Positions 17,778 to 19,157 of a DNA stretch of 35,919 bases are shown one piece after another. The position numbers and the translations under genes are program-made. The notes under the pieces are model-generated. The model saw nothing but the letters and a program-made list of their open reading frames with translations, was not told the DNA's origin and ran no database searches. Source of the stretch: Escherichia coli (GTDB taxonomy: Bacteria > Pseudomonadota > Gammaproteobacteria > Enterobacterales > Enterobacteriaceae); NCBI RefSeq assembly GCF_003334305.1, contig NZ_QOWS01000032.1, one strand, 5' to 3'. How positions within the stretch are numbered: position 1 is the stretch's first letter; the number at the start of each line of letters is the position of its first letter.

Positions 17778-17928
17778 ATTTGATCCTCGTTATTATCAAC
17801 CGCGGGCCTACCTTACCTGATTGCGCATTCACAACGCTTTCAGAAAAGTCCATAAAGCCGCGATGAACCTCAGTTAAGAAAATTATGGTCTACACTGAAA
17901 ATTACATCGAATTCTAATGGGGGATCAT

Positions 17929-18257
17929 ATGTTTAACCGACCGAACCGCAACGACGTTGATGATGGCGTGCAGGATATCCAGAATGATGTCAATCAATTA
18001 GCTGACAGCCTCGAATCTGTATTAAAGTCCTGGGCAGCGACGCCAAAGGGGAAGCTGAAGCCGCACGCAGTAAAGCTCAGGCATTGCTGAAAGAAACCAG
18101 GGCGCGAATGCATGGTCGTACTCGCGTCCAGCAAGCCGCACGCGATGCCGTTGGCTGCGCGGATTCTTTTGTTCGTGAAAGACCCTGGTGTAGCGTGGGT
18201 ACAGCAGCTGCGGTAGGTATTTTTATCGGCGCACTGTTAAGCATGCGCAAATCGTAG
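17929..18257 (+). pseudogene. ygaM: ElaB/YqjD-family (DUF883) ribosome- and membrane-associated protein, interrupted by an apparent 1-nt frameshift in this sequence
   Basis: ATG 17929 with GGGGGA Shine-Dalgarno. N-terminal frame reads MFNRPNRNDVDDGVQDIQNDVNQLADSLESVLKSW, then runs into TGA at 18088..18090. A second frame reads GSDAKGEAEAARSKAQALLKETRARMHGRTRVQQAARDAVGCADSFVRERPWCSVGTAAAVGIFIGALLSMRKS* to TAG at 18255..18257. The frames meet at the GGG run at 18032..18034. Confidence 0.7.
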
Positions 18258-18287
18258 TGCAAAAATGATAATAAATACGCGTCTTTG

Positions 18288-18319
18288 ACCCCGAAGCCTG
18301 TCTTCGGGGTTTCTTTTTG
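18288..18319 (+). terminator. Rho-independent terminator downstream of ygaM
   Basis: Stem ACCCCGAAG / CTTCGGGGT (18288..18296 and 18302..18310) with a short loop, followed by TTCTTTTTG. Confidence 0.65.
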
Positions 18320-18384
18320 CCTGGTGAATCACAAAAATTCCCCTACCCCGTCACGCTCATATCCAGGGTAATTTCGACCACTAT

Positions 18385-18400
18385 TTGCTATATATTGTGT
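18385..18400. promoter_or_regulatory. Candidate NrdR box upstream of nrdHIEF
   Basis: ttgctatatattgtgt resembles the NrdR-box palindrome (acaCwAtATaTwGtgt) as recalled. Right half matches well, left half is weaker. About 105 nt upstream of the nrdH ATG. Confidence 0.35.
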
Positions 18401-18504
18401 GGTTGAATCTTTTTTCAACTACATCTAGTATCTCTGTATCAACAGAGAAACAACCCGACGCGTATCATCGCGCCGTATCTTCATTTTAAACGGAAATACG
18501 AATC

Positions 18505-18750
18505 ATGCGCATTACTATTTACACTCGTAACGATTGCGTTCAGTGCCACGCCACCAAACGGGCGATGGAAAACCGGGGCTTTGATTTTGAAATGATTAAT
18601 GTCGATCGCGTTCCTGAAGCGGCGGAAGCGCTGCGTGCTCAGGGCTTTCGTCAGTTGCCGGTAGTGATTGCTGGCGATCTTAGCTGGTCTGGTTTCCGCC
18701 CGGACATGATCAATCGTCTGCATCCAGCGCCACACGCGGCCAGTGCATGA
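18505..18750 (+). CDS. nrdH: Glutaredoxin-like protein NrdH, 81 aa
   Basis: Translation [26 protein letters not shown]..., redox motif CVQC. Confidence 0.95.
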
Positions 18751-19157
18751 GCCAGCTCGTCTACTTTTCCAGTAGCTCCGAAAATACGCAGCGTTTTATC
18801 GAACGTTTAGGACTGCCCGCGGTGCGCATCCCGCTCAATGAGCGGGAACGGATTCAGGTAGACGAGCCTTACATCCTGATCGTGCCCTCTTACGGCGGCG
18901 GCGGTACGGCTGGCGCGGTGCCACGACAGGTAATTCGCTTTTTAAACGACGAGCACAACCGGGCGTTGCTTCGCGGCGTTATTGCTTCGGGTAATCGCAA
19001 CTTTGGTGAGGCGTATGGCCGCGCCGGAGATGTGATTGCCCGGAAATGCGGCGTGCCGTGGCTGTACCGTTTTGAACTCATGGGTACGCAAAGCGATATC
19101 GAAAACGTTCGTAAAGGAGTAACCGAATTTTGGCAACGACAACCGCAGAATGCCTGA
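18747..19157 (+). CDS. nrdI: Flavodoxin-like protein NrdI, 136 aa
   Basis: Translation [21 protein letters not shown]... Start overlaps the nrdH stop (ATGA). Confidence 0.95.

Follow-up and report, generated by a model that had tools for sequence, protein, structure and literature searches.

The stretch of DNA analysed here (the window, 35,919 nt) carries the gene order ygaM-nrdHIEF-proVWX, as read from its list of open reading frames and from the RefSeq annotation of E. coli strain A7, in which the whole window occurs in identical form (NZ_CP028767.1, 3618587-3654505). The spacer between ygaM and nrdH is 247 nt long and contains both elements under study, i.e. an operator for NrdR and a short inverted repeat; a strong terminator-like hairpin (18287-18311) lies at the end of ygaM, and the ATG of nrdH is found at 18505. 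The 251 nt around the elements upstream of nrdH have a match in 5,422 of 5,426 complete E. coli genomes, with 100% identity in strain A7.

18505..18750, plus strand: nrdH, the first gene of nrdHIEF (open reading frame list; RefSeq annotation of the identical strain A7)

As to the wider surroundings, ygaM (17929-18257) is a pseudogene here: a single G is missing near 18034-18037 (tcctgggcagc), the frame is split over two open reading frames (17917-18090 and 18084-18257), and the gene carries the label 'frameshifted' in the RefSeq annotation of the identical strain A7. Positions 1-6434 of the window have the look of a decayed island beside tRNA-Ile (3546-3621), in which the RefSeq annotation of strain A7 places the end of an IS3 transposase, a truncated ypjA/ehaD autotransporter, a recombinase fragment, and frameshifted DUF5507 and alpha-amylase-family genes.

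The spacer holds two NrdR boxes, of which the earlier note had recognised the first on the basis of its resemblance to an NrdR box and had overlooked the second:

18385..18400, no strand assigned: NrdR box 1, TTGCTATATATTGTGT, identical to box 1 of the probe of PMC12176259; matrix rank 1
18416..18431, no strand assigned: NrdR box 2, CAACTACATCTAGTAT, the one that actually pairs with box 1 (probe of PMC12176259); matrix rank 3

E. coli NrdR binds a 57-bp nrdHIEF probe with a KD of 138 nM in the presence of ATP and dATP and of 187 nM in the presence of ADP and dATP; the probe reads ACTAT-TTGCTATATATTGTGT-GGTTGAATCTTTTTT-CAACTACATCTAGTAT-CTCTG, that is two 16-bp boxes joined by a 15-bp linker and flanked by 5 nt on either side (PMC12176259). 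Positions 18380-18436 of the window equal this probe base for base and consequently the site at 18385-18400 is the published box 1 of nrdHIEF, so that the initial identification held. The centres of the two boxes (18392.5 and 18423.5) are 31 bp apart with a linker of 15 bp (18401-18415), and the stated rule for NrdR box pairs is a distance of 31-32 bp from centre to centre, i.e. three helical turns.

To score the boxes in a non-circular manner, an NrdR matrix was built from the four boxes of nrdAB and nrdDG only, leaving out those of nrdHIEF, and all 35,904 16-mers of the window were scanned with it. Box 1 obtained the highest score of all (12.25, rank 1 of 35,904) and box 2 ranked third (11.39). 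The comparative set for the box scores consisted of 82 Enterobacteriaceae loci, namely 80 that were fetched via NrdH, the window itself and an allele from UPEC. At the fixed 31-bp spacing, box 1 reached at least the window's 99.9th percentile in 81 of the 82 loci and box 2 did so in all 82; the two-box layout with the same spacing was present in 82/82, and AACTACATCTAGTAT of box 2 is nearly invariant across genera. The window thus has palindromic 16-bp boxes, a 31-bp spacing and a promoter location ahead of ribonucleotide reductase genes, as expected of an NrdR operator, and 18385-18400 together with 18416-18431 is the standard, already characterised bipartite NrdR operator of the nrdHIEF promoter. 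Both boxes are without any difference from those of the operator described for E. coli nrdHIEF, which overlaps the RNA polymerase site (PMC12176259). The combination of NrdR box and promoter is textbook-level regulation of E. coli ribonucleotide reductase, and what is recovered here beyond the earlier observation is the second box.

About 1,400 of the 5,422 E. coli genomes have a different allele upstream of nrdH (about 18300-18390; e.g. UPEC129), as has E2348/69 according to the literature, and this alternative allele adds two genes, one of the PLP-dependent aminotransferase family and one of the carboxymuconolactone decarboxylase family. Homology between the alternative and the K-12-type allele resumes within NrdR box 1, near 18390, and from the right half of box 1 onward the sequence is unchanged despite the allele swap, which implies that the functional promoter lies downstream of 18390. 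Box 1 of the alternative allele reads TTCCCATATCTTGTGT and scores 7.5 in the matrix versus 12.3 for the K-12-type form; the same variant is found in E. albertii and in the two Citrobacter loci that were inspected for box 1.

A core promoter is predicted within the operator:

18403..18408, plus strand: putative -35 hexamer TTGAAT, in the 15-bp NrdR linker, deduced from the conserved TTGNNN-17-TAGTAT
18426..18431, plus strand: putative -10 hexamer TAGTAT, with which box 2 ends, invariant in 81/81 sequences
18438, plus strand: predicted transcription start, an A located 7 nt past the -10, giving a 67-nt leader; deduced from the conserved -35/-10 pair

Promoter and leader were compared in 81 sequences; the loci from outside Escherichia number 75. 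A TTGNNN is located exactly 17 bp 5' of the invariant TAGTAT in all 81, in the form TTGAAx in 69 of them, and the segments GGTTGAA and CTACATCTAGTAT are essentially invariant across the compared loci. It is because of this conserved -35/-10 pair that we place +1 near A18438. We take the RegulonDB start nrdHp to lie at 2800656, which via MG1655 coordinates would correspond to 18438 of the window (the nrdH ATG is at 2800723 in NC_000913.3). Counted from the equivalent predicted start of Salmonella enterica subsp. diarizonae, the 19-mer that most resembles a Fur site ends at -309, and the Salmonella Fur box is quoted at -309 as well (PMC2892513); this agreement between sequence and literature supports a start near 18438. 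No usable nrdH entry is present in the supplementary data of Kim 2012, Ettwiller 2016, Conway 2014 or Beauchene 2015.

The predicted layout fits two published arrangements, namely the overlap of the NrdR boxes with the polymerase site (PMC12176259) and the embedding of the -35 in an activating IscR type II site (PMC8561392). From the geometry of boxes and promoter we infer that NrdR occludes the RNA polymerase site, its binding as such being published (PMC12176259): when bound to boxes 1 and 2 in its ATP- and dATP-loaded form, the NrdR tetramer would cover the -35 and -10 and repress the operon.

A generic promoter scan returned as its sole match TCAACA-18-TATCAT (18439-18468) and missed TTGAAT-17-TAGTAT because the latter agrees at 8/12 positions, below the cut-off of 9. 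The match that was returned was discounted as a promoter; its TATCAT corresponds to the variable loop of a leader hairpin in other genera. The promoter region contains, besides the repeat discussed below, a second perfect 6-bp inverted repeat, GTTGAA-N6-TTCAAC (18402-18407 / 18414-18419), extendable to TGTGGTTGAA / TTCAACTACA (10 nt, 90%), which covers the -35 hexamer together with the left edge of box 2 and of which both halves are highly conserved. It might be related to the IscR site over the -35; the pattern CCxYA-N7-TRxGG is not matched.

The second element under study is the palindrome immediately downstream of the -10. It had been described as a perfect TCTCTG-N6-CAGAGA, and this sequence is indeed present (TCTCTGTATCAACAGAGA, 18431-18448), but the repeat is better described with arms of 7 bp and a spacer of 4 nt, as TCTCTGT-ATCA-ACAGAGA:

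18431..18437, no strand assigned: left arm TCTCTGT, position -7 to -1, in the discriminator region; pyrimidine-rich in the outgroups too
18442..18448, no strand assigned: right arm ACAGAGA, position +5 to +11; variants G18446T and G18447A are known

The repeat ends 56 nt ahead of the nrdH ATG, in line with the distance of about 55 nt given before, and can be extended to 10 nt at 90% complementarity (18428-18437 / 18442-18451). The window contains 37 perfect inverted repeats with 7-bp arms and a spacer of 3-8 nt, i.e. about one per kb, and when the 247-nt intergenic region was simulated with a Markov-1 model, at least one such repeat turned up in 8.9% of the runs (P = 0.09). The inverted repeat is therefore statistically unremarkable for a region of this size. 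The exact repeat pattern, with at most 2 mismatches allowed, was found once in the window where 0.06 occurrences are expected, and a BLAST search of E. coli with queries of at least 30 nt (longer than the dyad) had the nrdH locus as its sole match. Just outside the right arm, position 18449 is an A in the window versus a G in MG1655, UPEC129, the other E. coli loci fetched and the other Escherichia loci sampled (CAGAGAaAC vs CAGAGAgAC).

A palindrome next to a genuine NrdR box, upstream of an operon that is regulated by NrdR and Fur, invites the idea that it is itself a box for one of these two regulators, which is among the readings given in the earlier note, where scans with both matrices were proposed. 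For NrdR the outcome was negative: all 16-mers that start between 18426 and 18439 score below zero (-3.6 to -23.9), and for the symmetric one, 18432-18447, the score is -21.2, which is the 7th percentile. Nor does the distance fit, as the spacing of about 46 nt that had been put forward for a pairing with box 1 amounts to 47 bp between centres (16 bp from box 2), whereas pairs are spaced by 31-32 bp, and the position of second box is already taken by 18416-18431. The repeat in fact lies outside the nrdHIEF NrdR operator and has just the last base of box 2 in common with it; that base and the CTCTG flank, i.e. the first 6 bases of the repeat, fall within the NrdR probe. The nrdAB operator offers a precedent for an NrdR box that can be overlooked downstream of the core promoter, in the form of its non-canonical box 2, which lies beyond the promoter and was newly assigned in PMC12176259; that box, however, keeps the 15-bp linker and a recognisable sequence (GTACTACAGGTAGTCT; PMC12176259), and the repeat has neither.

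The case for Fur is similar in that the operon is Fur-repressed and Fur binds the intergenic region, yet the repeat itself matches the Fur consensus (GATAATGATAATCATTATC) at no more than 8 of 19 positions and the 7-1-7 motif at no more than 7 of 14. Published ChIP-exo peaks were placed on the window by subtracting 2780240 from the U00096.2 coordinate; in doing so we assumed an offset of 1978 bp between NC_000913.3 and U00096.2, and likewise assumed the position of csrB that served as a check. The three peaks (2798593-2798627, 2798743-2798772 and 2798753-2798761 in U00096.2; PMC10164565) then take the following positions:

18353..18387, no strand assigned: upstream Fur-bound region, peak P87 of MG1655 under iron-replete conditions, abutting box 1 (PMC10164565 Dataset 2)
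18503..18532, no strand assigned: peak P88, over the nrdH start codon (PMC10164565 Dataset 2)
18513..18521, no strand assigned: peak P89 (PMC10164565 Dataset 2)

None of these peaks, obtained with iron-replete MG1655, touches 18431-18448. Weak Fur-like matches (11/19) lie under P87 (18367-18385) and under P88 (18492-18510 and 18501-18519), and a Fur box has been described at the position that corresponds to 18366-18373 (PMC3458845). Taken together, the negative NrdR scores, the 47-bp spacing, the presence of the proper box 2, the poor Fur match and the location of the peaks elsewhere leave next to no probability for the notion that the repeat is a box for Fur or a further one for NrdR, and we regard this notion as effectively refuted. 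The best match to the Fur consensus in the intergenic region is a different sequence, AAAAATGATAATAAATACG (13/19, 18261-18279), which directly follows the stop codon of ygaM, ahead of the terminator of that gene, and is absent from the published MG1655 Fur ChIP-exo peaks.

The repeat was compared with the patterns of other DNA-binding proteins as well. Its match to the IscR type II pattern (CCxYA-N7-TRxGG within AxxxCCxxAxxxxxxxTAxGGxxxT) is at most 5-6 of 9, which is not above background, and the 8 top-ranking matches listed are all centred elsewhere; an IscR-like match of 6/9 at 18450-18474 starts just past the repeat and lies over the leader hairpin, in a window that contains 379 matches of this quality. 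The LexA SOS box has the form CTGT-N8-ACAG. With CTGT and ACAG in dyad symmetry near an operon for DNA precursors the repeat bears some likeness to it, but the spacing at 18434 is N4 instead of N8 and the flanks are unlike TACTGTATATATATACAGTA; instances with N8 number zero in the window, and LexA was rejected as a candidate. A DnaA box was likewise rejected: GTATCAACA (18436-18444) agrees with TTATCCACA at 7 of 9 positions, and about 0.7 chance matches of this kind are expected in 250 nt when both strands are counted.

Comparison between species separates the repeat from the elements around it. Nowhere in promoter and leader is conservation lower than just past the -10. When the 30 nt from the -10 are searched in the 75 non-Escherichia loci, perfect inverted repeats reach 2-4 bp at most in every one of them, as they do in shuffled sequences; in the alignment of 81 sequences the seven pairs of the repeat are formed in 46% of the cells, and three of the seven are unpaired in 56-65 of 80 sequences. 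The 7-bp repeat is common to E. coli and two further Escherichia species, E. whittamii has a mismatch in one arm (TCACTG), and E. albertii has a perfect repeat of 10 bp, TATCTCTCTG-GTAA-CAGAGAGATA, with five substitutions relative to E. coli and the symmetry axis shifted by one base. Taken at face value, the longer repeat of E. albertii could indicate selection for dyad symmetry; the hint is weakened because the arms are of the type (TC)n/(GA)n, which are complementary in shifted registers, and because the axis is shifted too.

Within E. coli, 18419-18448 is identical in 5,055 of 5,421 genomes (93%). Ten variant loci were fetched, of which eight have changes in the arms and none has a compensating change: G18446T occurs five times, including in O104:H4 HUSEC2011, and T18433C, G18447A and the double change G18436A+G18446T once each. 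The remaining two differ solely at the first base of box 2. The alleles G18446T, T18433C and G18447A thus represent natural, uncompensated variants in sequenced strains.

These observations bear directly on the possibility that the repeat is the operator of an Escherichia-specific dimeric repressor, which, seated over the start (-7 to +11), would prevent initiation or promoter escape. A perfect dyad centred around +2 lies at a position over the transcription start that is classic for repressors, it is kept in E. coli, two further Escherichia species and (with 10 bp) E. albertii, and the large majority of E. coli genomes are identical at the repeat. Against this, the dyad is absent in each of the 75 non-Escherichia loci although the operon and the other promoter elements are conserved there, the natural arm variants go uncompensated, the sequence matches none of the NrdR, Fur, IscR and LexA patterns, the only regulators of nrdHIEF named in the literature found are NrdR, Fur and IscR, and the chance expectation of such a repeat is not small. 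We consider such an operator quite unlikely. The broader proposition that TCTCTGT-N4-ACAGAGA is a functional element gained in Escherichia, be it a repressor operator or a structure that modulates initiation or promoter escape, we hold to be quite unlikely; if true, the dyad would have been retained, and even lengthened in E. albertii, since the genus diverged, and it would constitute a fourth input to a promoter that integrates NrdR, Fur and IscR.

It is also conceivable that the sequence tunes the promoter without a protein partner, by way of the discriminator (-6 to -1) and the initially transcribed sequence. The position relative to the putative -10 and +1 would allow an effect on the stability of the open complex or on promoter escape, and the discriminator is CTCTGT in Escherichia versus mostly TCCTTT-like in other genera. 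Nothing observed points to the dyad symmetry, as opposed to the base composition, as the feature that matters, and the region is the least constrained of the promoter, which makes us judge tuning of this kind very unlikely.

The relatives do suggest how the repeat may have come about. They have a pyrimidine-rich segment after the -10 (e.g. TTCTCTCTATCA) followed by a CA-rich tract: ACACA is found within 26 nt past the -10, a span that covers the right arm, in 35 of the 75 non-Escherichia loci, and Escherichia has AGAGAGA where many relatives have ACACACA. Clustered C-to-G changes would have turned the ACACACA tract into AGAGAGA, complementary to the older left segment. Clusters of same-type substitutions are a product of templated quasi-palindrome (template-switch) mutation. 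The likeness to such products lies in a cluster of substitutions that perfects the complementarity to a pre-existing neighbouring segment, and it stems from the comparison of extant sequences only; on that basis it is plausible that the repeat arose by templated quasi-palindrome mutation, without the need for selection.

A further option is that the repeat acts in the RNA. The earlier note had listed a 5'-UTR hairpin among the possibilities, which has become unlikely, as the predicted +1 (about 18438) falls inside the repeat and the hairpin finds no support outside Escherichia. With a start near 18438 the left arm would not be transcribed from this promoter and only the right arm would be present in the RNA, so a stem-loop governing stability or translation would have to be made on transcripts that begin ahead of 18431 or on read-through from ygaM. 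The repeat does have a predicted RNA fold, a hairpin with 7 bp at -8.5 kcal/mol (z = -3.7), and a transcript from 18403 is more structured than shuffled sequences (z = -3.0). Yet the only conserved sigma-70 promoter is the one that puts +1 within the repeat, a leader that begins at 18438 shows no more structure than its shuffles (z = +0.34), and read-through transcripts with both arms should be rare because of the strong terminator-like hairpin that ends ygaM. Covariation was not seen and pairing is absent outside Escherichia; RNAalifold predicted no consensus structure for the 81 leaders, and an Rfam scan of 18200-18800 at a permissive E-value gave no match over threshold and none over the repeat. 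Sub-threshold Rfam hits fall at the 3' end of ygaM, its terminator or just downstream, except for snoR9_plant (minus strand, 18478-18547). A leader stem-loop formed by the repeat is accordingly most improbable in our assessment.

The reading we favour, with good confidence, is that 18385-18448 is the core promoter of nrdHIEF with its known NrdR operator, plus an incidental palindrome that is confined to Escherichia. In all likelihood the palindrome serves no dedicated regulatory purpose, a judgement that follows from the lack of a match to NrdR, Fur, IscR or LexA, the lack of conservation outside Escherichia, the uncompensated variants and the chance expectation of P = 0.09. In the favoured reading, control of the promoter would be exerted by NrdR as set out above, by Fur, whose published binding regions abut box 1 on its upstream side and cover the start codon of nrdH, and by IscR, for which activation via the -35 region is published; TCTCTGT-ATCA-ACAGAGA, spanning about -7 to +11, stands outside all three systems. 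Overall, one of the two elements was already known and the other is unsupported as a regulatory site, so the finding matters little.

The leader downstream of the repeat contains a further hairpin-like element:

18456..18475, plus strand: GC-rich hairpin-like element in the leader, CGACGCG-tatcat-CGCGCCG (with an A-C mismatch); -7.3 kcal/mol, z = -2.0

For this hairpin 76% of the cells are paired across 80 distinct sequences, mostly by invariant pairs and with few double changes; no Rfam family matches it. GACGC and GCGCC are retained in most genera and covariation is weak overall, the double changes being CGATG/CATCG in two of the compared loci (L040 and L075) and ACGT/ACGT in a third (L078). 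The pentamer GTATC occurs four times in 52 nt, namely after the -10 (18428), at the predicted start (18436), in the loop of the leader hairpin (18462) and just past that hairpin (18475). Four copies of any non-trivial 5-mer per 55-nt span were seen in 6 of 1,000 Markov simulations of the region, and neither in E. albertii nor in other genera are the copies conserved. The 25 nt ahead of the nrdH ATG (18480-18504; CATTTTAAAyGGAAATACGAATCATG) are almost invariant in about 80 Enterobacteriaceae species and far more conserved than the other parts of the leader. They are overlapped by P88 and by weak Fur-like matches, and this segment may combine the ribosome-binding site with a downstream Fur site.
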